The notes under the pieces are model-generated. The model ran no database searches. It was not told the DNA's origin and saw nothing but the letters and a program-made list of their open reading frames with translations. Below, piece by piece: positions 3,194 to 14,654 of a DNA stretch of 16,178 nt (its first letter is position 1; each line of letters begins with the position of its first letter). A program made the position numbers and the translations under genes. The stretch lies in UHGV virus genome UHGV-1561483. One strand, 5' to 3'. Source of the stretch: a virus.

Positions 3194-4162
3194 ATGAAAA
3201 CTGTAACTATCAATAAGGGTATCTACTTCGGTAAAGAAATCTCTGGAACTTTTGAGCTCTTAGGCGAATGGTTCCCAGATAATGCTCCGGTAGATGCACA
3301 AGGAGATGGTAAAGTTTTTGTTGAAATTGACGGTAAACGTCGCGGTGTTTGGGTTTACAAATCAGATATTTCATATGATGGTGTAAAAGTTGAAGAAGTT
3401 AAAGAATCGTATGAAGATATGAAAACCCGCATTAATAAAAGATTTAATGTTATGGGAATGATGACGAATGGTATTATTAATGGAAATATTCGTTCATTAA
3501 TTATCTCTGGCGCAGCAGGTATTGGTAAAACGTATTCTTTAGATAAAGCTTTAAATAAAGCAAATGATATTGGATACATTGAATATAAAAGCATTAATGG
3601 TAAAATCTCTGGTATTGGTCTTTATGAGCAGCTTTGGAATAATCGTGAAGAGAATTCTGTCCTTTTGATTGATGATGTGGATGTTTTCTCTGATATGGAC
3701 ATTCTTAATCTTCTAAAAGCTGCTCTGGACACTGGAGAGACCCGTAAAGTCTGCTGGAGCACTGCGTCTTCTTACTTAGAAGAAAAAGGCATTGAGCGTG
3801 AGTTTGAATTTAAAGGAACGATTGTTTTTATCACAAACGTTGACATTGACCGTGAATTAGACCGTGGTACTAAACTTGCTCCACACTTACAAGCATTAGT
3901 GTCCCGCTCGGTTTATTTAGATTTGGGCGTTCACACTAATGAAGAAATTATGGTCAGGGTTGAAGATGTTATTCTTTCAACTGACATGATGCAAAAGCGC
4001 GGTCTTTCTGATGAAGAAACTTATAAAGCATTATCATGGATGAAAGTTAATGTTAATCGTTTACGCAATGTTTCACTGCGTACTGCTCTTTATCTTGCTG
4101 ACTTTATTATGACCGACAAAAACGGTTGGGAAGAAATTGCTGAGGTTACTCTTCTGAAATAA
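3194..4162 (+). CDS. AAA+ ATPase-domain protein (322 aa)
   Basis: Walker A GAAGIGKT (nt 3509-3532), Walker B VLLIDDVDV (about 3661-3687), candidate sensor-1 IVFITN. ORF-track start at 3074 runs through the terminator and promoter, so the start was moved to ATG 3194 after GGAG. Confidence 0.7.
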   Translation: MKTVTINKGIYFGKEISGTFELLGEWFPDNAPVDAQGDGKVFVEIDGKRRGVWVYKSDISYDGVKVEEVKESYEDMKTRINKRFNVMGMMTNGIINGNIRSLIISGAAGIGKTYSLDKALNKANDIGYIEYKSINGKISGIGLYEQLWNNREENSVLLIDDVDVFSDMDILNLLKAALDTGETRKVCWSTASSYLEEKGIEREFEFKGTIVFITNVDIDRELDRGTKLAPHLQALVSRSVYLDLGVHTNEEIMVRVEDVILSTDMMQKRGLSDEETYKALSWMKVNVNRLRNVSLRTALYLADFIMTDKNGWEEIAEVTLLK

Positions 4163-4259
4163 TTCATAAGAGGACTTCTATGACAAAAGGCAGTTCAGAA
4201 ATAGATTATATGGACTGCCATTAAAAAGATGACTAGAATTAAACTGGTGAATGGAGGTA

Positions 4260-4565
4260 ATGATGTTATACTCAAAGGCTCGTGAAATTTACGAAACTAA
4301 AATTAAAGAAGCAGTATTTCAGTTCGCAACAACGATGCGATGGACAAATGATTGGGAGTATTCAAAAAATCATAAGAAGCCCATGGTGACAAGAAAGGCT
4401 CATATGTTAGTGTTAATAGACCGTGAGCAGATTAAAGCCCGAGAAGCCCTCCAGAATCATAAAAAGGCTGCCTTTGAATGGTTTATGGATAACACTGCTC
4501 CTGAGACTAAGAAAGCAGTGAGCGCATGGTTCAGTGGAAAAAATTGCGAAAGAAGTTTCTTTTAG
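4260..4565 (+). CDS. hypothetical protein (about 101 aa)
   Basis: GGAGG at 4253-4257; in-frame ATGs at 4251, 4260 and 4263, start ambiguous (4263 has the best spacing). Confidence 0.5.
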   Translation: MMLYSKAREIYETKIKEAVFQFATTMRWTNDWEYSKNHKKPMVTRKAHMLVLIDREQIKAREALQNHKKAAFEWFMDNTAPETKKAVSAWFSGKNCERSFF

Positions 4566-4567
4566 TG

Positions 4568-4597
4568 GTTTACAAGACTGTTCCTCTGTGGTACTAT
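4568..4597 (+). promoter_or_regulatory. T4-early-type sigma70 promoter
   Basis: GTTTAC 4568-4573, 18-bp spacer, TACTAT 4592-4597; near-identical to the promoter at 3130-3159. Confidence 0.65.
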
Positions 4598-4610
4598 ACA
4601 ACTATCAACT
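4589..4610 (+). repeat. 22-bp exact direct repeat, copy 2 (TGGTACTATACAACTATCAACT)
   Basis: Identical to 3151-3172; embedded in the promoter upstream of the 4626 gene. Confidence 0.9.
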
Positions 4611-4625
4611 ACGGAGGAACAGAAA

Positions 4626-5153
4626 ATGAACGCTAAAGATATTTTCAACTTGGTAAATTACAACGATGGTAAATTTAAATCTGAAGCACAAAGCAAGTTC
4701 TTTAACGACATCTCAATCGGAGGTGAAATTACTGTTGATGGAGGACAAATTTACAAATCCCGTTGGAATTGGATCGTTATTATTGATGAGATTGGTATTG
4801 TAGAAATTTACAAGAATACGAATAAAAATCGTGCATTACACTGGTCTCGTGATACTAACGAACAGTACAAAAAGGATAAAGCATCTAAATTATCTCGTGT
4901 AACTCAAGAAGATATTGAGTTCATCAAGAAAGATATTTTGATGTATGATAACTTAATTGCTGAAGAGCAAGCTGTTATTGATAAATTTGATGAGATTAAA
5001 GCTTCTCGTGAAATTCCTGATTTTATGAAAGAATCAGTAAATGAACGATACTCTCTCATTTCAGAGCGTATTGAAACTTACAAAAAGCAAAGAGCTGAAC
5101 GCCAAAATACTCTTCGGAAGTTTGAAGAACGGTTAAAGACGGTACTCGCATAA
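4626..5153 (+). CDS. hypothetical protein with charged helical C-terminus (175 aa)
   Basis: GGAGG (4613-4617) then ATG 4626; C-terminal third is rich in E/K/R and looks heptad-like. Confidence 0.65.
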   Translation: MNAKDIFNLVNYNDGKFKSEAQSKFFNDISIGGEITVDGGQIYKSRWNWIVIIDEIGIVEIYKNTNKNRALHWSRDTNEQYKKDKASKLSRVTQEDIEFIKKDILMYDNLIAEEQAVIDKFDEIKASREIPDFMKESVNERYSLISERIETYKKQRAERQNTLRKFEERLKTVLA

Positions 5154-5155
5154 CC

Positions 5156-5179
5156 GCTTTATACCAAGGATGGTATAAT
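5156..5179 (+). promoter_or_regulatory. candidate promoter, MotA-box-like GCTTTA + 12 bp + TATAAT (T4 middle-type), overlapped by an inverted repeat
   Basis: GCTTTA 5156-5161, TATAAT 5174-5179; inverted repeat ATACCA-AGGA-TGGTAT at 5161-5176. Confidence 0.45.
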
Positions 5180-5208
5180 GGTTCTAAGCCCTTTTAATTG
5201 AGATTATT

Positions 5209-5613
5209 ATGAAACAGTTGATAATTAAAAGATTGAATTTATTGATATGTTGTTTATGTATAGTAATTGCATATGGTTATTACGCAATTAATGATTATAT
5301 GCATTATAAAGATTATGATGTTACTGTAGTTAATACCATTACAGGAACACAAGGAAAGGGGTCTAGTTTATCGTTTATTGCTGTATATGAACTCAAAGAC
5401 GGTTATAGATTTAGCGAATATATTTCACCAGAGATGTATTCATCAATAGAAAAAGGCGATAATATTACTGTAAGTTTACGTCCTTTCGACGTAAAACAGA
5501 CATTGTTTGATAATATTGTTTGGTTCTTTGGAATGGTATTAGTTCAATCTGTGTGTGGTGCTTATATAGTCTTTTCCATCATATTCTGCGTATTTAGTAA
5601 AATTGAAAATTGA
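5209..5613 (+). CDS. predicted small membrane protein (134 aa)
   Basis: Hydrophobic segments at both ends (LNLLICCLCIVIAYGYYAI; IVWFFGMVLVQSVCGAYIVFSIIFCVF). Confidence 0.55.
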   Translation: MKQLIIKRLNLLICCLCIVIAYGYYAINDYMHYKDYDVTVVNTITGTQGKGSSLSFIAVYELKDGYRFSEYISPEMYSSIEKGDNITVSLRPFDVKQTLFDNIVWFFGMVLVQSVCGAYIVFSIIFCVFSKIEN

Positions 5614-5624
5614 GTGAGGAAAAT

Positions 5625-6512
5625 ATGTCAGTAGTAATTAATAATGTCAATGCAGTAATTAAATCTTTAGTTAATAAAAAATTGAATGAATGGACTGTAC
5701 TTCGTCGTGGAGAGCCAGATAAATTTTTTCATAGATTTAACCCAACTTTGGATTTGAATGTTATTGACAGAGATGTTCATGCTGAAATTTTAGATAAATT
5801 TAAAGTTGATATTGGGTTTGGATTAGATAAACATTTACAACGAACAAACGGGTCTGGAATGGGTTTATCTAATCGCATCATGAAAGCCCTTAATAAAATT
5901 GGAGCGTTGTCTCGTATTAATGCGAGTGAAATCCTTCGTAATTATAATAAAGGATATGACCTTTATGGTCGACTAATGCCAAAATTATCATTTGACCAAA
6001 TGATCGCAGATTTGTGGGAAAATCAACGACGATTATTAGCATTGGGAGCTCGATTAGCTAAAGGTCTAGATAAACAAATGATTTTTAAGACCAATAATAC
6101 AGAAGACCTTAAATGCTTTAAATTTAGTATTCGTGGCGATGATTATTACATCAGAGCTCGCTCCACAGATTATGTCAATATGGGCCATCATCTCTGTTTA
6201 GCTTTTGAAGTTTTAAAAGAAGCTGGAACATTAGAATATACGTCTGGTACTAAATGCCCGATTGGTTCAAATTGTATTTTGATTTATCGCCCGGATGAAT
6301 CCAGTTCAACTAAATTGCCTACGAAACCTGTACCAGTTCGTAGTAATGAAAAACATTCTGAACAAATTGATTATTTTAATAAGCAAATTGAAGAGCTGAA
6401 TATTTCTATTCAACAGTATGACGATGAAATTTTCAGACTATCTGGATTGAGTAGTAAAGCTAAATCTGAGCGTGAAAAGTTAATTAAAATTGTTGATTTA
6501 CTTAAATCTTAA
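5625..6512 (+). CDS. hypothetical protein, paralog family member 1 (295 aa; globular domain + Pro-rich linker + C-terminal coiled coil)
   Basis: ORF-track start 5610 is TTG; ATG 5625 follows GAGG. Internal motif LLALGARLAKGLD, linker PTKPVPV, heptad-like tail. Confidence 0.6.
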   Translation: MSVVINNVNAVIKSLVNKKLNEWTVLRRGEPDKFFHRFNPTLDLNVIDRDVHAEILDKFKVDIGFGLDKHLQRTNGSGMGLSNRIMKALNKIGALSRINASEILRNYNKGYDLYGRLMPKLSFDQMIADLWENQRRLLALGARLAKGLDKQMIFKTNNTEDLKCFKFSIRGDDYYIRARSTDYVNMGHHLCLAFEVLKEAGTLEYTSGTKCPIGSNCILIYRPDESSSTKLPTKPVPVRSNEKHSEQIDYFNKQIEELNISIQQYDDEIFRLSGLSSKAKSEREKLIKIVDLLKS

Positions 6513-6520
6513 GGAACACC

Positions 6521-7549
6521 ATGAAAACTCGTTCTCAAATTGAAGATATGGTTCGTAATGCCAGCTATACCCGTAATGTTATGACATTTTTGTGTGAAAA
6601 TAATTTAGACCCTGATAAAGTTAATCGTGTTATTCATCACTTTAAGTATACGAATAGCAGTGAATGGGTGCGTAATTTTAGTAAAGCGGGGTATATTACA
6701 CAAATGACTGCTCGTGAGCAGCTCACCGATTTCTGTAAAACTATTGATTATAAAAATCCTCTATTTGTTCAAGGCGTTGGTCAGAGTAAGGTCGATTTAT
6801 CAACAGGATTTTTTAATCCAAATCATTATCGTCTTGAATGGAGATTTATTGCTCTATTCCGTAAACAATTAAAGCAAATTTTGTCGACGGCTAGTCGATT
6901 AAAAGGTTCTGATATTAACTTAAAGAATCTGAAATTTGATGGTTATACTCTTCAGATGGAAGTAAGACCATTAAAAGAAAATAACAGAACTGCACGAATT
7001 AGCTTTAAGCCTAATACTAAAAATTCTCTTTCAATTTGTGAATGCCTTAAATCACAGTTGACAGAAGCATTTAAGTATATGGATGTTGTTGCTGCTGTTC
7101 AGTCTAAGATTTTACCTCGTTTTGAGCGAAATTGGGAACATACAACAACGTATGAACTTGATATGATCGTTTCATTTAAATATGAATTTTTGAGAAAGGA
7201 CGAAGTTACACAAGAGAAAAAGCAAGAAGTGCAAGATAACTTAAATTTAAATTTATCCAATTACTCATCAAACGATCCTAAATTTTGGATGTATAGTTCA
7301 GGTAATAAGGATGCATGGAAATTCAATAAAGTGAATTTTCTTCCTGTTGAAAATCCGAGTCTTAAACCTGTTGAAAAATGGCATGCAGATGCGATTGAGA
7401 AGTCTATCAAGGCAGTAGATGATGAACTCGTTAAAGCAACTAATGAAGTGCTAGAAGCTGAAAAGATGCTAGAAAAAGCTCAAGAAAAAGTCAAAAATCT
7501 CACGAAGCAACGTTCTAAACTGAACAATGCACTAAATGCACTGAACTAG
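6521..7549 (+). CDS. hypothetical protein, paralog family member 2 (342 aa)
   Basis: AAGGA (6511-6515) then ATG 6521. N-terminus MKTR..., internal motif LFRKQLKQILSTASRLKGSD, linker PVENPSLKPVEK, heptad-like C-terminal helix. Confidence 0.7.
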   Translation: MKTRSQIEDMVRNASYTRNVMTFLCENNLDPDKVNRVIHHFKYTNSSEWVRNFSKAGYITQMTAREQLTDFCKTIDYKNPLFVQGVGQSKVDLSTGFFNPNHYRLEWRFIALFRKQLKQILSTASRLKGSDINLKNLKFDGYTLQMEVRPLKENNRTARISFKPNTKNSLSICECLKSQLTEAFKYMDVVAAVQSKILPRFERNWEHTTTYELDMIVSFKYEFLRKDEVTQEKKQEVQDNLNLNLSNYSSNDPKFWMYSSGNKDAWKFNKVNFLPVENPSLKPVEKWHADAIEKSIKAVDDELVKATNEVLEAEKMLEKAQEKVKNLTKQRSKLNNALNALN

Positions 7550-7578
7550 TTTACTTTACCACAGGGATGTGGTATAAT
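7549..7578 (+). promoter_or_regulatory. candidate promoter (GTTTAC -35, 18-bp spacer, TGGTATAAT extended -10), overlapped by an inverted repeat
   Basis: GTTTAC 7549-7554, TATAAT 7573-7578; inverted repeat ACCACA-GGGA-TGTGGT at 7558-7573. Confidence 0.55.
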
Positions 7579-7606
7579 GTTCTTACTTTCTACTGAGGAG
7601 ATTAAT

Positions 7607-8608
7607 ATGACTCGTAACGAATATATCAAATCATTCAATAGCGTTATTGATGATAAAGCTATACCGATGTTTGGCCAAAATAGCGTTCTTTCTATTATCA
7701 ATCAATGGCTCAATAGTGTTGATGCAAGTATTGTTTCTTCTACTAAATTTATTCATGAAATTCGTAAAATTTCTAGCCGTGTAGATAAAGATGTTATCAA
7801 GAAAACCTTTAAAGAGTCTCGTCTTCTTTCATATTTGGTTAATCGGGATATTCTTGGTAATTTTGGGAAAGAAATTAAACGAACCAAAGATGTAGTAGGA
7901 TATAATTGGTTCGGTGATGTTAATTCTTATCATCTTAATAATAAAGAAGACCCTGAGAATATTTTTACTCGTCGTTGGATTAGTAATTTCAGACTTTTCA
8001 AAGGACAGATTCTAAAATCAGCTTCTAAATTATGTTATGGCGATTATCGTCAAATTCATCCTTTGGCTTCTGATATGATTATCATAAAAGAATATGAACT
8101 TGATAAAAATAAAGTATCTATTTTTGTGAATTATGGATTTTTTACACCAGAAACTAACCAAAAGAATATTAATAAATTTTTCTCAATTGCTAGCACTATA
8201 ACTCGTCAATTAGAGACCGCATTACTTTGTATGGAAACAGTAGAAAATATTCATACATATCCTTTTAAGAATATATGCGGATGGGAAGGATATAAAATTG
8301 TAATTAGTCTTCGTGAAGTGAAATGTGCTTATTCACCTACTGATAAAGAAATTTATCAACAAAAATGTGAGGAAATTGTGAATACTCCTAAAGAAGAAAC
8401 TACCCTTGAGGAACTAATGGATAATCTTGATGATTCGCCTGAACCGGTAGAAATTCGTCCAGAAGTTATTGCACTAGAAAAAGCTTATAAAGAAGTTCTA
8501 GAAATTTCTAATAAAGCACAGAAAGAATATGAGCAGGCTAAAAGGATTTGGGAAGAATCTGTTAATCGTCTTGATCGTCTGGAACAAGCTTTACAGTTAA
8601 TTAAGTAA
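7607..8608 (+). CDS. hypothetical protein, paralog family member 3 (333 aa)
   Basis: ORF-track start 7577 sits inside the TATAAT; ATG 7607 follows GAGGAG (7596-7601). N-terminus MTRNEYIKSFNS resembles member 4; internal motif LFKGQILKSASKLCYGD; linker SPEPVEIRPEV; C-terminal coiled coil. Confidence 0.7.
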   Translation: MTRNEYIKSFNSVIDDKAIPMFGQNSVLSIINQWLNSVDASIVSSTKFIHEIRKISSRVDKDVIKKTFKESRLLSYLVNRDILGNFGKEIKRTKDVVGYNWFGDVNSYHLNNKEDPENIFTRRWISNFRLFKGQILKSASKLCYGDYRQIHPLASDMIIIKEYELDKNKVSIFVNYGFFTPETNQKNINKFFSIASTITRQLETALLCMETVENIHTYPFKNICGWEGYKIVISLREVKCAYSPTDKEIYQQKCEEIVNTPKEETTLEELMDNLDDSPEPVEIRPEVIALEKAYKEVLEISNKAQKEYEQAKRIWEESVNRLDRLEQALQLIK

Positions 8609-8660
8609 TTTAAAGCCAAGGATGGCTCGGAGTATAAACTATTAACCAAGTGAGAAGAAC

Positions 8661-9587
8661 ATGAAAACTCGTAAACATTATATTGATTATTTTGACAGTC
8701 TTATTACTAAACATCGTAATTATCAGATAGGACACAGAGCAGTAATCAATAATATTCTTCGTGATTTTTTAGACTATATTGGATGGGAAAACCATATTTG
8801 TAAAGATACACAAAATGCGTATTCACATTCTCTTGGTTCTTTGCTCGAGTGGTTCAAACGTTCCCGATTACTATCTTCTGTGATAGCTGTTAATAATGTT
8901 AAAAAATTTATGTATCCAAGCTACATTGAGACTAATGTATCAAATGCTAGTGTTGTTACATTTAATATTATTAACGACGTGAAAAGAACTTATTTAGAAG
9001 AATGGTTTTCTAAAGATAGTAAAGAAAAATTTGCCAGTGAGTTTTCACACGAATTTAATAATAATGTGAATATGCTTTTTAAGCATTCTCGTAGACTGTT
9101 TTGTCATGGCGATGACCGTACTATTAATGTAAATGTAAAAGATTGGGTTACGGCTAAATTCATTCCATCATCACAGAATGGACCATTTGAATTGTCAATT
9201 ATTGTTTGTGCTCCGCATGAAATATATAAAAATATTCCATATATGAAACCATGTGAAGCTAATAAACATAATAAAACGATTCGTTCTTTGACTTATAATC
9301 TTCGTACGTTATTGTCTAAAATGGACGTAGTTGAATCCTTTGATGATAATACGAATTATGGTCTTTCACTATTTGAAACTAAAGTTGTTATTAAGTTAAA
9401 GGACCCTAGTAAATTTAAACCTACGCCAAAGCCCAATCGTGGGAATGATACTATGAAAGAAGAACGCGAATATCTCAGTGCTCGTTTGATTGAAGTTGAA
9501 AAACAGATTGAAGAGCATACTAAAGTTATTAAGGCTTTAACTGCCAAAGCAAATGGTTTACGTGATGCTATTGAGGTACTGAAATGA
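8661..9587 (+). CDS. hypothetical protein, paralog family member 4 (308 aa)
   Basis: N-terminus MKTRKHYIDYFDS, internal motif LFKHSRRLFCHGDD, linker PSKFKPTPKPN, heptad-like C-terminal helix. Weak RBS. Confidence 0.65.
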   Translation: MKTRKHYIDYFDSLITKHRNYQIGHRAVINNILRDFLDYIGWENHICKDTQNAYSHSLGSLLEWFKRSRLLSSVIAVNNVKKFMYPSYIETNVSNASVVTFNIINDVKRTYLEEWFSKDSKEKFASEFSHEFNNNVNMLFKHSRRLFCHGDDRTINVNVKDWVTAKFIPSSQNGPFELSIIVCAPHEIYKNIPYMKPCEANKHNKTIRSLTYNLRTLLSKMDVVESFDDNTNYGLSLFETKVVIKLKDPSKFKPTPKPNRGNDTMKEEREYLSARLIEVEKQIEEHTKVIKALTAKANGLRDAIEVLK

Positions 9588-9901
9588 AAAAGCGTTTATT
9601 AGAAGATATTGCAGCTTCAAGTAATTCCAGTCTAATTAAAATTATTATGGCTGGTGAAGAAGACGATCTGGAAATGCGTGGAAAGATTCATGGTTGTGAC
9701 GATTTAGATTTTAAACCTCCAGCTTGGGATGCCATTATGGCTATGGTTGAACGTCGCGAAAGGGCTTCTAAAAGCGTTCCTAATTGTCCTGAATGCGGTA
9801 CTGAACAGGTTCAATTAGTCCATTGGCAGACTAGTAATCTTCGTTATAAATGCCGTCATTGCAAACACCGATTTAACCGAGAAGAAAATGACCAAGCGTA
9901 A
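9584..9901 (+). CDS. small zinc-ribbon protein (105 aa)
   Basis: CPECG-x17-CRHCKH cysteine pairs at the C-terminus; ATGA overlap with upstream stop, GAGGT RBS. Confidence 0.6.
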
Positions 9902-10130
9902 AGAATATATGGAGATTGCTGAAAAGGCAGTACGTGAATTAGCAATAGCATATTATAATGAACATGGTAAATTTCCTGATAGATACAGCGTGCTTAAATC
10001 TGCTTTAACTCGTTCATATAAAAATATGCTATCAGAAGTAAGTGATATTATATACAAACATAAAGAACAAACGGGCCAAAGTCTTGATTACGACGAGACT
10101 TTTAAACAAGTACTAGGAATTAAGGAATAA
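9888..10130 (+). CDS. hypothetical protein (80 aa)
   Basis: ATG 9888 overlaps the upstream gene by 14 nt; ends 1 nt before nrdC. Confidence 0.5.
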
Positions 10131-11899: not shown

Positions 11900-12373
11900 A
11901 TGTTATTGACTGGCAAATTATACAAAGAAGAAAAACAGAAATTTTATAATGCACAAAACGGTAAATGCTTAATTTGCCAACGAGAACTAAATCCTGATGT
12001 TCAAGCTAATCACCTTGACCATGACCATGAATTAAATGGACCAAAAGCAGGAAAGGTACGTGGATTGCTCTGTAATCTCTGTAATGCTGCAGAAGGTCAA
12101 ATGAAGCATAAATTCAATCGTTCTGGCTTAAAGGGACAAGGTGTTGATTATCTTGAATGGCTAGAAAATTTACTTACTTATTTAAAATCCGATTACACCC
12201 AAAATAATATTCACCCTAACTTCGTTGGAGATAAATCAAAGGAATTTTCTCGTTTAGGAAAAGAGGAAATGATGGCTGAGATGCTTCAAAGAGGATTTGA
12301 ATATAATGAATCTGACACTAAAACACAATTAATAGCTTCATTTAAGAAGCAGCTTAGAAAGAGTTTAAAATGA
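11900..12373 (+). CDS. 49: endonuclease VII (Holliday-junction resolving / packaging endonuclease)
   Basis: 157-aa ORF; N-terminus MLLTGKLYKEEKQKF recognised; Zn ligands Cys23, Cys26, Cys58, Cys61 and catalytic Asp40/His41/Asn62/Glu65 all at the positions known for T4 endo VII. Confidence 0.92.
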   Translation: MLLTGKLYKEEKQKFYNAQNGKCLICQRELNPDVQANHLDHDHELNGPKAGKVRGLLCNLCNAAEGQMKHKFNRSGLKGQGVDYLEWLENLLTYLKSDYTQNNIHPNFVGDKSKEFSRLGKEEMMAEMLQRGFEYNESDTKTQLIASFKKQLRKSLK

Positions 12374-14187
12374 CAATTGAAAAAGAAATTGAAGGATTGA
12401 TTCATAAAACTAATAAAGACCTTTTAAACGAGAATGCTAATAAAGATTCTCGTGTTTTTCCAACTCAACGGGACCTTATGGCTGGTATTGTGTCTAAACA
12501 CATTGCCAAAAATATGGTCCCGTCTTTTATTATGAAAGCGCATGAAAGCGGAATTATCCATTTCCATGATATTGATTATTCCCCTGCTCTTCCATTTACT
12601 AATTGCTGTTTAGTAGATTTAAAAGGAATGCTTGAAAACGGATTTAAGCTCGGTAATGCACAGATTGAAACTCCTAAATCAATCGGCGTTGCTACTGCAA
12701 TTATGGCACAAATTACTGCACAGGTTGCTTCTCATCAATATGGCGGAACGACTTTTGCGAATGTAGATAAAGTACTTTCTCCTTATGTTAAACGCACCTA
12801 CGCGAAACATATTGAGGACGCGGAAAAATGGCAAATCGCTGATGCGTTGAATTACGCCCAGTCTAAAACAGAAAAAGACGTATATGATGCATTCCAAGCT
12901 TATGAATATGAAGTAAATACTCTCTTTAGTTCAAACGGACAAACGCCTTTTGTAACAATTACGTTTGGTACGGGAACTGACTGGACTGAACGAATGATTC
13001 AGAAGGCAATTCTGAAAAATCGTATTAAAGGTCTTGGTCGCGATGGGATAACTCCTATTTTCCCTAAGCTTGTTATGTTCGTTGAAGAAGGTGTTAATCT
13101 TTATAAAGATGACCCGAACTATGATATTAAACAGCTTGCTCTAGAGTGCGCAAGCAAAAGAATGTATCCTGACATCATTTCGGCTAAGAACAATAAAGCT
13201 ATCACCGGTTCATCTATTCCTGTTTCTCCAATGGGTTGCCGCAGTTTCTTGAGCGTATGGAAAGATTCGACTGGCAATGAAATTCTTGATGGACGTAATA
13301 ATCTTGGTGTTGTAACATTGAATCTTCCTCGCATCGCGTTAGATTCTTATATTGGAACACAATTCAATGAACAGAAATTTGTTGAATTGTTCAATGAACG
13401 AATGGATTTGTGTTTTGAAGCTTTGATGTGTAGAATTAGTTCCTTAAAAGGAGTTAAAGCGACTGTTGCTCCTATTCTTTACCAAGAAGGTGCATTCGGG
13501 GTTCGTCTTAAACCCGATGACGACATAATTGAGTTATTTAAAAACGGTAGAAGTTCAGTGTCTTTGGGATACATTGGTATTCACGAATTGAATATTCTTG
13601 TCGGTCGTGATATTGGGCAGGAAATTTTAACTAAAATGAATGCTCGTCTTAAGCAGTGGACTGAAAGAACCGGTTTTGCTTTTAGCTTGTATTCTACTCC
13701 TGCTGAAAACCTGTGCTATCGCTTCTGTAAACTTGATACTGAGAAATATGGAAGTGTAAAAGATGTTACTGATAAAGGATGGTACACTAATAGTTTCCAT
13801 GTTTCAGTAGAAGAAAATATCACTCCGTTTGAAAAGATTTCTCGAGAAGCACCATATCATTTCATTGCGACAGGTGGTCACATTTCTTATGTTGAACTTC
13901 CTGATATGAAAAATAACTTAAAAGGTCTTGAGGCTGTATGGGATTATGCTGCACAACATTTAGATTATTTTGGCGTTAACATGCCAGTAGATAAATGTTT
14001 TACATGTGGAAGTACCCATGAAATGACTCCTACTGAAAACGGGTTTGTTTGTTCTATTTGTGGAGAAACTGATCCTAAAAAGATGAACACAATAAGAAGA
14101 ACTTGTGGTTATTTGGGAAATCCGAACGAACGTGGATTTAATCTTGGCAAAAATAAAGAAATCATGCATAGGGTTAAACACCAATGA
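12370..14187 (+). CDS. nrdD: anaerobic (class III) ribonucleoside-triphosphate reductase, uninterrupted
   Basis: 605-aa ORF; C-terminal zinc ribbon CFTC-x14-CSIC at residues 543-564 and glycyl-radical motif RRTCGYLG with Gly580 (nt 14107-14109), matching T4 NrdD numbering. ATGA overlaps with gene 49 and nrdG. Confidence 0.95.
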   Translation: MTIEKEIEGLIHKTNKDLLNENANKDSRVFPTQRDLMAGIVSKHIAKNMVPSFIMKAHESGIIHFHDIDYSPALPFTNCCLVDLKGMLENGFKLGNAQIETPKSIGVATAIMAQITAQVASHQYGGTTFANVDKVLSPYVKRTYAKHIEDAEKWQIADALNYAQSKTEKDVYDAFQAYEYEVNTLFSSNGQTPFVTITFGTGTDWTERMIQKAILKNRIKGLGRDGITPIFPKLVMFVEEGVNLYKDDPNYDIKQLALECASKRMYPDIISAKNNKAITGSSIPVSPMGCRSFLSVWKDSTGNEILDGRNNLGVVTLNLPRIALDSYIGTQFNEQKFVELFNERMDLCFEALMCRISSLKGVKATVAPILYQEGAFGVRLKPDDDIIELFKNGRSSVSLGYIGIHELNILVGRDIGQEILTKMNARLKQWTERTGFAFSLYSTPAENLCYRFCKLDTEKYGSVKDVTDKGWYTNSFHVSVEENITPFEKISREAPYHFIATGGHISYVELPDMKNNLKGLEAVWDYAAQHLDYFGVNMPVDKCFTCGSTHEMTPTENGFVCSICGETDPKKMNTIRRTCGYLGNPNERGFNLGKNKEIMHRVKHQ

Positions 14188-14654
14188 ATTATGATAGATT
14201 TTATCCTTGCGATTTTGTGAATGGCCCTGGATGCAGGGTCGTTCTTTTCGTTACAGGTTGTTTGCATAAATGCGAAGGGTGTTATAATAAATCAACATGG
14301 AATGCTAGAAATGGCGTTCCATTCACTGGTGAAACACTAGAACAATTAATTGAATGTTTGAATAATGATTATATAGAAGGATTAACTATAACTGGAGGTG
14401 ACCCTCTTTATCCTGATAACCGAGATGTTATTCATTGCATTGTTCAAACAGTAAAAAATCTTTATCCGAATAAAAGCATTTGGTTGTGGACCGGATATAA
14501 GTTTGAGGATATTAAACAACTAGAAATGCTTAAATATGTTGATGTTATTATTGATGGGAAGTATGAGAAAAATCTTCCGACCAAAAAGCTGTGGCGAGGA
14601 TCAGATAATCAGCGACTTTGGTCAAATACCGATGGGGTGTGGAAACATGATTAA
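14184..14654 (+). CDS. nrdG: anaerobic ribonucleotide reductase activating protein (radical SAM)
   Basis: 156-aa ORF; CLHKCEGC (CxxxCxxC) cluster near the N-terminus; ATGA-coupled to nrdD. Confidence 0.92.
   Translation: MNYDRFYPCDFVNGPGCRVVLFVTGCLHKCEGCYNKSTWNARNGVPFTGETLEQLIECLNNDYIEGLTITGGDPLYPDNRDVIHCIVQTVKNLYPNKSIWLWTGYKFEDIKQLEMLKYVDVIIDGKYEKNLPTKKLWRGSDNQRLWSNTDGVWKHD

Follow-up and report, generated by a model that had tools for sequence, protein, structure and literature searches.

The sirtuin (SIR2 NADase) defence Dsr1 is overcome by the NrdC.5 protein of bacteriophage T4 (Srikant, Guegler and Laub, eLife 2022, PMC9391042). One T4 clone, which bore a compensatory deletion, plated neither on ECOR17 nor on MG1655 with the ECOR17 dsr1 gene, and plasmid-expressed nrdC.5 alone restored plating of the deletion mutant on Dsr1 cells (PMC9391042). 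Dsr1 has a tetratricopeptide repeat (TPR) sensor, common with Avs7, which recognises phage major capsid proteins (PMC12803255). Here we analysed a stretch of 16,178 nucleotides from the virus genome UHGV-1561483, hereafter called the window, which carries at positions 5625-9587 an array of four consecutive genes, the second of which is the orthologue of T4 nrdC.5. On balance, the results favour the view that the array represents a single ancient, strongly diverged family of dispensable early T-even accessory proteins, in which variable heads may bind different defence proteins and a C-terminal tail may oligomerise. What is new here is the treatment of all four proteins, together with single-copy relatives in other genera, as one head, linker and coiled-coil family; in a literature search, no paper was found that groups the four genes into a family or deals with their tails.

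Several described systems resemble the array in part. The T4 internal proteins IPI, IPII and IPIII combine a conserved module with a variable anti-defence effector. Like them, the array would be an anti-defence set with one short conserved module attached to divergent bodies acting on different targets. However, the module of the internal proteins is an N-terminal capsid-targeting peptide, which is cleaved, while that of the array is a C-terminal coiled coil with no sign of virion packaging, and the two sets are not related in sequence. Poxvirus 'genomic accordions' and the amplification of T4 tifA are also tandem paralogues in an accessory region, and, as in the array, copies vary in number (one, three or four in the array) and microhomology deletions and fusions are frequent; unlike in these systems, the duplications in the array are ancient and the copies have diverged past BLAST recognition, instead of being recent and identical. 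DSAD1 of phage SPbeta neutralises the defence-associated sirtuin DSR2 (PMC11087589), and could be regarded as a functional analogue of NrdC.5, being a phage protein directed against a sirtuin defence; its target is DSR2, not Dsr1, and the two proteins are likened by description only. The closest described protein is T4 NrdC.5 itself (DUF7235), whose orthologue in the window occupies the same genomic position; NrdC.4 and NrdC.3 appear to be its remote homologues, and NrdC.6 probably is one as well. These three proteins fall below the Pfam threshold for the family, and different targets are expected for them because their heads are at best 15-25% identical to that of NrdC.5.

The window belongs to Tequatrovirus. 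Positions 5400-9900 match hundreds of T4-like phages, with 95.2% nucleotide identity to the T4 reference, and the genes are arranged as in the nrdC.11-to-nrdG block of T4. By identity and synteny, the four plus-strand open reading frames (ORFs) are the orthologues of T4 nrdC.6 (5625-6512, 295 aa, 97% amino acid identity over 259 aa), nrdC.5 (6521-7549, 342 aa, 94%), nrdC.4 (7607-8608, 333 aa, 98%) and nrdC.3 (8661-9587, 308 aa, 95%). The lengths given in an initial annotation, made from the window sequence alone, agree with the ORF list, as do the coordinates. Its authors did not recognise the family, although these are long-annotated T4 genes covered by DUF7235, PHROG 1435, 2351 and 2257, PF26897 and PF26899.

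NrdC.6 matches PHROG 2257 over its full length (E 1.5e-152), and Pfam accession PF26899 is precomputed on all its homologues. NrdC.5 belongs to phrog_2351 and matches PF23882 (DUF7235) over profile positions 1-307 of 307 with 432 bits (E 1.6e-129; gathering cut-off 30 bits). The same profile has no match in NrdC.6 or NrdC.4, and in NrdC.3 reaches only 11.2 bits, in the tail only (E 0.24). Both NrdC.4 (E 2.6e-169) and NrdC.3 (E 3.2e-100) are full-length matches of PHROG 1435, so that PHROGs on its own puts them into one family; PF26897 is precomputed on NrdC.4 homologues. The accessions PF26899 and PF26897 are annotations of homologues and were not in the Pfam copy scanned here. The function of all three PHROGs is unassigned, and our literature search found no paper mentioning these family accessions. 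Scans of the four proteins against Pfam, PHROGs, NCBIfam and PADLOC revealed neither a named family nor similarity to a known anti-defence protein. A confident match of all members to a characterised structural or enzymatic family, which the initial annotation had named as contrary evidence, was looked for, and no significant sequence or fold match to any solved or curated family of this kind was found.

All four proteins consist of a head, a Pro-rich linker and a C-terminal helical tail. In NrdC.6, the head comprises amino acids 1-222 (5625-6290), the linker 223-244 (6291-6356) and the tail 245-295 (6357-6509). The NrdC.5 head (1-222, 6521-7186) is followed by a long linker modelled with low confidence (223-282, 7187-7366) and the tail (283-342, 7367-7546). 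For the other two proteins the boundaries come from the alignment alone: NrdC.4 has a head of about 245 residues, an acidic and Pro-rich linker (246-287, 8342-8467) and a tail (288-333, 8468-8605), and NrdC.3 a head of about 248 residues, a linker (249-264, 9405-9452) and a tail (265-308, 9453-9584).

When all four families were aligned with MAFFT, unsupervised and together with gp91 of Citrobacter phage Merlin, a relative discussed below, two head motifs, the Pro-rich linker and the C-terminal helix fell into common columns and in the same order. Motif A, which the initial annotation had missed, reads LNKIGALSRINASEILRNY in NrdC.6 and FSKAGYITQMTAREQLTDF, FKESRLLSYLVNRDILGNF and FKRSRLLSSVIAVNNVKKF in the other families; it was located by local hhalign comparison and MAFFT at 5889-5945 (aa 89-107) in nrdC.6, 6677-6733 (53-71) in nrdC.5, 7808-7864 (68-86) in nrdC.4 and 8853-8909 (65-83) in nrdC.3. 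Motif B, with the NrdC.6 form NQRRLLALGARLAKGLD, is the internal motif already pointed out in the initial annotation, and was recovered by hhalign and MAFFT at 6021-6071 (aa 133-149), 6857-6913 (113-131), 7997-8044 (131-146) and 9075-9116 (139-152), respectively; both motifs lie on the plus strand.

The linker and heptad-like helix that had been described at the end of each protein were likewise found in all four. The tail, an amphipathic helix, spans six heptads and about 45-60 residues. Over the final 42 residues of each protein, 75-92% of the heptad a and d positions are hydrophobic and 36-40% of residues are charged, and the four tails follow one common heptad register when aligned from the C-terminus. 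Most families end in L-x-x-A-[ILV]-x-x-L-[KN], while in NrdC.6 Ile replaces Ala and one additional residue follows the Lys. In every family, conservation is stronger in the tail than in the head, with identities of 0.69 and 0.64 for the NrdC.6 tail and head, 0.46 and 0.38 for NrdC.5, 0.68 and 0.55 for NrdC.4, and 0.75 and 0.65 for NrdC.3.

The common origin proposed for the four genes is not visible in pairwise comparisons, since BLASTP was non-significant for five of the six pairs and detected only NrdC.4 versus NrdC.3 (24% identity over 270 aa, E 1.4e-4), and HMMER profiles of the four families cross-matched only between these two. For profile-profile comparison with hhalign, the alignments were extended with divergent orthologues from Mosigvirus, Gaprivervirus and Dhakavirus and from an exhaustive database search, and filtered for redundancy. 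NrdC.4 and NrdC.3 proved to be clearly homologous (99.1%, E 8e-18; local E 8e-14). NrdC.5 aligned with the merged NrdC.4 and NrdC.3 profile globally (97.4%, E 4.5e-11) and also locally when only heads were compared (94.7%, E 5.8e-8; NrdC.5 residues 49-236 with NrdC.4 residues 64-256), which makes the homology of NrdC.5, NrdC.4 and NrdC.3 very probable. The low pairwise identity and the lack of BLASTP signal would also fit a chance resemblance caused by composition, the genes being AT-rich and the helices rich in Lys and Glu. Such an explanation is highly improbable, since profile-profile E-values range from 1e-11 to 1e-18, decoy and negative-control scores are far lower, and PHROGs independently merges NrdC.4 with NrdC.3; for NrdC.5, NrdC.4 and NrdC.3 it is contradicted. 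The negative control was NrdC.8, encoded upstream of the array, which also has a charged C-terminal helix and was considered as a fifth member; it was rejected, its global hhalign scores being only 0.6-3.6 against every family.

The membership of NrdC.6 is probable, at a lower level of confidence. In a global alignment with the merged profile of the other three families it scored 34.2 (78%, E 2e-6), compared with 6.2±3.3 (maximum 13.6) for 60 block-shuffled decoys and 11.5 for the reversed profile. Without the tail, the signal was limited to a 60-residue block that aligns NrdC.6 residues 84-144 with NrdC.5 residues 48-127; its local score of 33.8 (E 2.7e-4) exceeded those of the decoys (18.4±2.5, maximum 25.7). 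The global score of the NrdC.6 head, 15.3, was inside the decoy range (maximum 20.6). One could therefore suppose that the array consists of three true paralogues, NrdC.5, NrdC.4 and NrdC.3, and an unrelated NrdC.6, which was acquired or has converged on a similar linker and tail. The latter head-only score agrees with this, as do the absence of any BLASTP or HMMER signal tying NrdC.6 to the others, the generic heptad sequence of the tails, and the ability of microhomology deletions to move a tail to another body, as in the NrdC.6::NrdC.4 fusion of phage Manna described below. Nevertheless, we consider this alternative unlikely, given the local two-motif match and the collinear global score, both above their decoy maxima, the constant presence of NrdC.6 beside NrdC.5 in every examined genus that has the array, and the structural comparisons that follow. 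The description of the genes as four divergent paralogues is confirmed, with NrdC.6 as a probable member.

AlphaFold2 models of NrdC.6 and NrdC.5 were built from separate alignments. The NrdC.6 model reached a mean predicted local distance difference test (pLDDT) score of 77.6 and a predicted template modelling (pTM) score of 0.66. The NrdC.5 model was poor (pLDDT 53.8, with residues 1-108 below 50), with reasonable confidence limited to the tail and the core (residues 110-222). In both models the C-terminus forms a long helix, comprising residues 245-294 (50 residues) in NrdC.6 and 283-341 (59 residues) in NrdC.5, with a pLDDT of about 77-90 in this block. The order of elements is common to both: the helices of motifs A and B, a beta-hairpin (165-178 in NrdC.6, 144-162 in NrdC.5), a helix (186-199 and 169-185), two strands (204-221 and 190-219), a disordered linker and the long helix. 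This one-to-one correspondence speaks against an unrelated NrdC.6. Along the sequence-derived alignment, secondary structure agreed at 74% of positions, and for the heads alone at 66%, versus 41±11% in shifted controls.

A Foldseek search of BFVD with the NrdC.6 model returned first its own family and then, matched over their full length, uncharacterised proteins of 300-335 aa from other T4-like genera, with E-values from 1e-7 to 8e-4 and 12-17% identity. Among them was A0A0K1LMI4, which is gp91 of the Moonvirus Merlin (334 aa, E 1.8e-4). With the NrdC.5 model the search did not recover its own family, and Merlin gp91, the second-best match (E 1.1e-3), was the sole useful one. A 175-aa protein of phage KPV15 appeared weakly in both lists, which had been a further reason to consider NrdC.8 as a member. 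Merlin gp91 is the only gene of this kind in the syntenic nrdC-to-nrdC.10 interval of the Merlin genome. Both motif A and motif B are present in it, its tail ends in QKLASAVEALNE, and as a single sequence it aligned collinearly with the merged NrdC.5, NrdC.4 and NrdC.3 profile (E 2.8e-4). The same protein is thus matched by the NrdC.6 model and by the profile of the other three, which also speaks against a separate origin of NrdC.6.

Searches with tblastn found NrdC.6 in 742, NrdC.5 in 583, NrdC.4 in 554 and NrdC.3 in 654 phage records, all of them enterobacterial T-even-like phages. A comparison of copy number and gene order across T-even relatives, suggested in the initial annotation, revealed one copy in Merlin, three in Mosigvirus, Gaprivervirus and Dhakavirus, and four in Tequatrovirus. 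The order is NrdC.6, NrdC.5, NrdC.4, NrdC.3 in Tequatrovirus, NrdC.6-like, NrdC.5-like, NrdC.3-like in Mosigvirus, and NrdC.6, a small membrane ORF, NrdC.5, NrdC.4 in Gaprivervirus and Dhakavirus. Since a trio is present in the three latter genera and a single gene in Merlin, the split between NrdC.4 and NrdC.3 is the youngest and the others are old. The duplication in situ that had been envisaged for the whole array is thus plausible as a recent event for nrdC.4 and nrdC.3, and does not describe the other splits.

The array genes evolve faster than their neighbours. The ratio of nonsynonymous to synonymous substitution rates (dN/dS), calculated for the window versus T4 or EP01, was 0.11-0.50 for the four genes and 0.00-0.02 for the flanking enzyme genes nrdC, gene 49 and nrdD. 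Values of 0.11-0.50 indicate purifying selection, relaxed or mixed with diversification. For NrdC.3, allele classes of about 95%, 61% and 55% identity were distinguished among phage genomes, and the values of 55-61% occur both within and between genera. Conservation in these alleles is about 90% over residues 1-75 and over the tail, and the centre is only 20-60% identical.

The arrangement of the surrounding genes is also relevant to function. The array is flanked by nrdC.8 (4626-5153) and nrdC.1 (9888-10130). In the HIDEN-SEQ preprint (10.1101/2025.11.20.689424), nrdC.1 is described as an inhibitor of Septu and bas37_0203 of phage Bas37 as an inhibitor of Druantia type III; from its size (528 nt) and its position and order, we infer that bas37_0203 is the orthologue of nrdC.8. 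Together with nrdC.5, the stretch from nrdC.1 to nrdC.8 looks like a counter-defence island. In the same preprint, nrdC.3-6 of T4 and bas37_0198-0201 of Bas37 are classed as non-essential on K-12 (10.1101/2025.11.20.689424). Genes that are dispensable, often deleted or fused, fast evolving and located in a block with three anti-defence genes show a pattern typical of host-range accessory genes. The arms-race interpretation offered for the array at the outset agrees with all of this: with the action of NrdC.5 against Dsr1, the flanking anti-defence genes, the non-essentiality, the dN/dS values, the NrdC.3 alleles and the stronger conservation of tails than of heads. On the whole, part of that initial interpretation is supported and part had been anticipated, the counter-defence role of one of the genes having been published before.

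By orthology, the NrdC.5 protein encoded in the window presumably neutralises Dsr1 as T4 NrdC.5 does. Since NrdC.5 disarms Dsr1 and the other three proteins are linked to it by the family relation, they are good counter-defence candidates, and we regard the chances that NrdC.3, NrdC.4 and NrdC.6 have such a role as evenly balanced. Ever since the genome of T4, the best-studied lytic phage, was sequenced, nrdC.3, nrdC.4 and nrdC.6 have lacked an assigned function; the link to NrdC.5 by remote homology and common design turns them into three concrete candidates for new immunity inhibitors. The family also shows the expansion of an anti-defence gene from one to four copies across phage genera, which bears on the prediction of host range for phage therapy.

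A different function could be proposed, namely that these proteins are host-takeover or regulatory factors acting on a normal host or phage process (nucleoid, transcription or metabolism) and that the effect on Dsr1 is indirect. No mechanism has been published for NrdC.5, and the four proteins resemble no known anti-defence protein or curated family, as would fit this explanation; the same holds for the lack of conditional phenotypes of nrdC.3, nrdC.4 and nrdC.6 in the main text and one comparison table of the HIDEN-SEQ preprint. It appears rather improbable in view of the full dispensability of the genes on K-12 in both T4 and Bas37 reported in that preprint, the frequent deletion or fusion of members in natural isolates (e.g., ACG-C40, Manna and fPS-65), their faster evolution than that of the neighbours, and their location in a block with three anti-defence genes.

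For the favoured reading, an anti-defence family of variable heads on a common tail, the following mechanism could be suggested. The mostly helical N-terminal region with its two conserved motifs would be followed by a small beta-hairpin/helix/beta-hairpin core, a disordered Pro-rich linker and the C-terminal coiled coil. Each variable head would be the target-binding part, directed against a different host immunity protein in each paralogue, with the NrdC.5 head binding Dsr1. The tail would drive homo-oligomerisation, providing avidity or creating a cage- or clamp-like inhibitor. The proteins would act by binding and not by catalysis; a non-enzymatic binder is likelier than an enzyme because there are no catalytic-looking conserved residues and no known fold, and the heads evolve fast.

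The tails of different paralogues could also join in a common hetero-oligomeric coiled coil, so that one complex would carry several heads. In accordance with this, the order of the trio (NrdC.6-like, NrdC.5-like and NrdC.4/NrdC.3-like) is conserved in Mosigvirus, Gaprivervirus and Dhakavirus, the tails are conserved inside each family and differ between families, and one heptad register fits all of them. This arrangement is nevertheless improbable, as plasmid-borne NrdC.5 is by itself enough for the mutant to plate on Dsr1 cells (a point whose weight depends on the extent of the deletion in that mutant), Merlin has a single member, and individual members are lost in natural isolates. A broader and quite tentative idea is that of a modular counter-defence superfamily comprising NrdC.3-6 and the single-copy relatives from other T4-like genera, in which the tail would serve as a common docking or assembly module, either building a homo- or hetero-oligomeric multi-headed inhibitor or inserting into the repeat-built sensor domains of receptors of the Dsr1/Avs7 type, while the fast-evolving heads would choose the receptor. 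If so, three T4 ORFans would each be a new inhibitor of a defence system.

Several points weigh against the interpretation of the array as one counter-defence family. An exhaustive HMMER search of 1.84 billion proteins with the NrdC.5 profile yielded 13 representatives, none of them from the NrdC.3, NrdC.4 or NrdC.6 families. The probable tie of NrdC.6 to the others consists of the block of 60 residues, the common architecture and Foldseek scores that are modest, and a shared fold of the heads may be indicated by the order of elements, the model of the NrdC.5 head being poor (pLDDT 54). Tail-versus-tail similarity between families is mainly heptad periodicity, the zero offset being the best or near-best in five of the six pairs with small margins. 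On the functional side, NrdC.5 is the only one of the four with an experimental phenotype, and it might act on Dsr1 only indirectly. In its main text, the HIDEN-SEQ preprint leaves nrdC.3-6 out of the genes named as conditionally essential on clinical isolates, and one of its comparison tables gives no significant effect for them (10.1101/2025.11.20.689424).

Array members are often rearranged in natural isolates. In ACG-C40 (5802-6213, local numbering) only a stub of NrdC.5 and the NrdC.3 tail are left. Salmonella phage Manna gp094 (4215-5252, local numbering) is an in-frame fusion of NrdC.6 residues 1-268 with NrdC.4 residues 251-333, and P0224 is an in-frame fusion of NrdC.5 with an NrdC.3-like protein. 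Both fusions keep a C-terminal tail, and their junctions lie in microhomologies of 3-4 residues (DDEI/CEEI and NKVN/NNVN) at non-homologous alignment positions; these chimeras, as products of microhomology deletions, were rejected as evidence of homology. Phage Sf25 carries an internal duplication within NrdC.6. P0230, a 173-aa ORF, joins an unrelated N-terminal part of 120 aa to a tail that is 100% identical to that of NrdC.5 and is followed by the start of nrdC.4; this may be a real head replacement or an assembly chimera. The case was not used as a natural head swap, since P0230 lies on a metagenome contig of 803 bp, and nothing in the phage collection matches the first 478 nt of this contig.

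The NrdC.6 protein of the T4 reference genome (NC_000866, 6219-7046, local numbering) has an annotated length of 275 aa, ends in an unrelated sequence (…IEELIFLFNNMMMKFSDYLD) and has no coiled-coil tail. The tail is present in the window, EP01 and ACG-C40, and, according to the HIDEN-SEQ preprint (10.1101/2025.11.20.689424), the T4 stock of that study has an nrdC.6 gene of 891 nt; the reference nrdC.6 is therefore either frameshifted or wrongly sequenced. Gaprivervirus VR7 (3844-4059) and the Dhakavirus-like fDHCT2 (3870-4070; both in local numbering) have, between their genes for NrdC.6 and NrdC.5, an ORF for a predicted membrane protein of 66-71 aa, which is absent from this place in Tequatrovirus.

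The genes of the array are separated by gaps of 8, 57 and 52 nt, and nrdC.3 and nrdC.2 overlap by 4 nt; only short ORFs lie on the opposite strand. The 57-nt gap before nrdC.4 contains a sigma-70-like promoter match on the plus strand (7550-7578, TTTACT-17-TATAAT with an upstream TG), predicted by a consensus scan alone, which could serve nrdC.4 and nrdC.3 as an internal early promoter. It is overlapped by a small hairpin with a 7-bp stem (7557-7574). A Rfam scan of the whole window found no family, and short DNA repeats between the array genes were at chance level, except for the 'ATGAAAACTCGT' start common to nrdC.5 and nrdC.3.

Elsewhere in the window, nrdD is one uninterrupted ORF of 605 aa directly followed by nrdG (12370-14654), while in the T4 reference an I-TevII intron lies in nrdD and the mobC homing endonuclease gene between nrdD and nrdG. 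With mobD, upstream, also missing, the phage lacks three T4 mobile endonuclease elements of this block. The place of T4 mobD and mobD.1, upstream of the nrdC.11 nucleotidyltransferase gene, is taken by two adjacent plus-strand ORFs at 512-1075 and 1082-1603 (187 and 173 aa). They are mutual paralogues (BLASTP, 26% identity over 179 aa, E 7e-8) with similar C-termini (…EAIALKTYLDSVIPTM and …EAEAMIKYLTTVTPSM), and genes of similar size are found at this place in phage Bas37.

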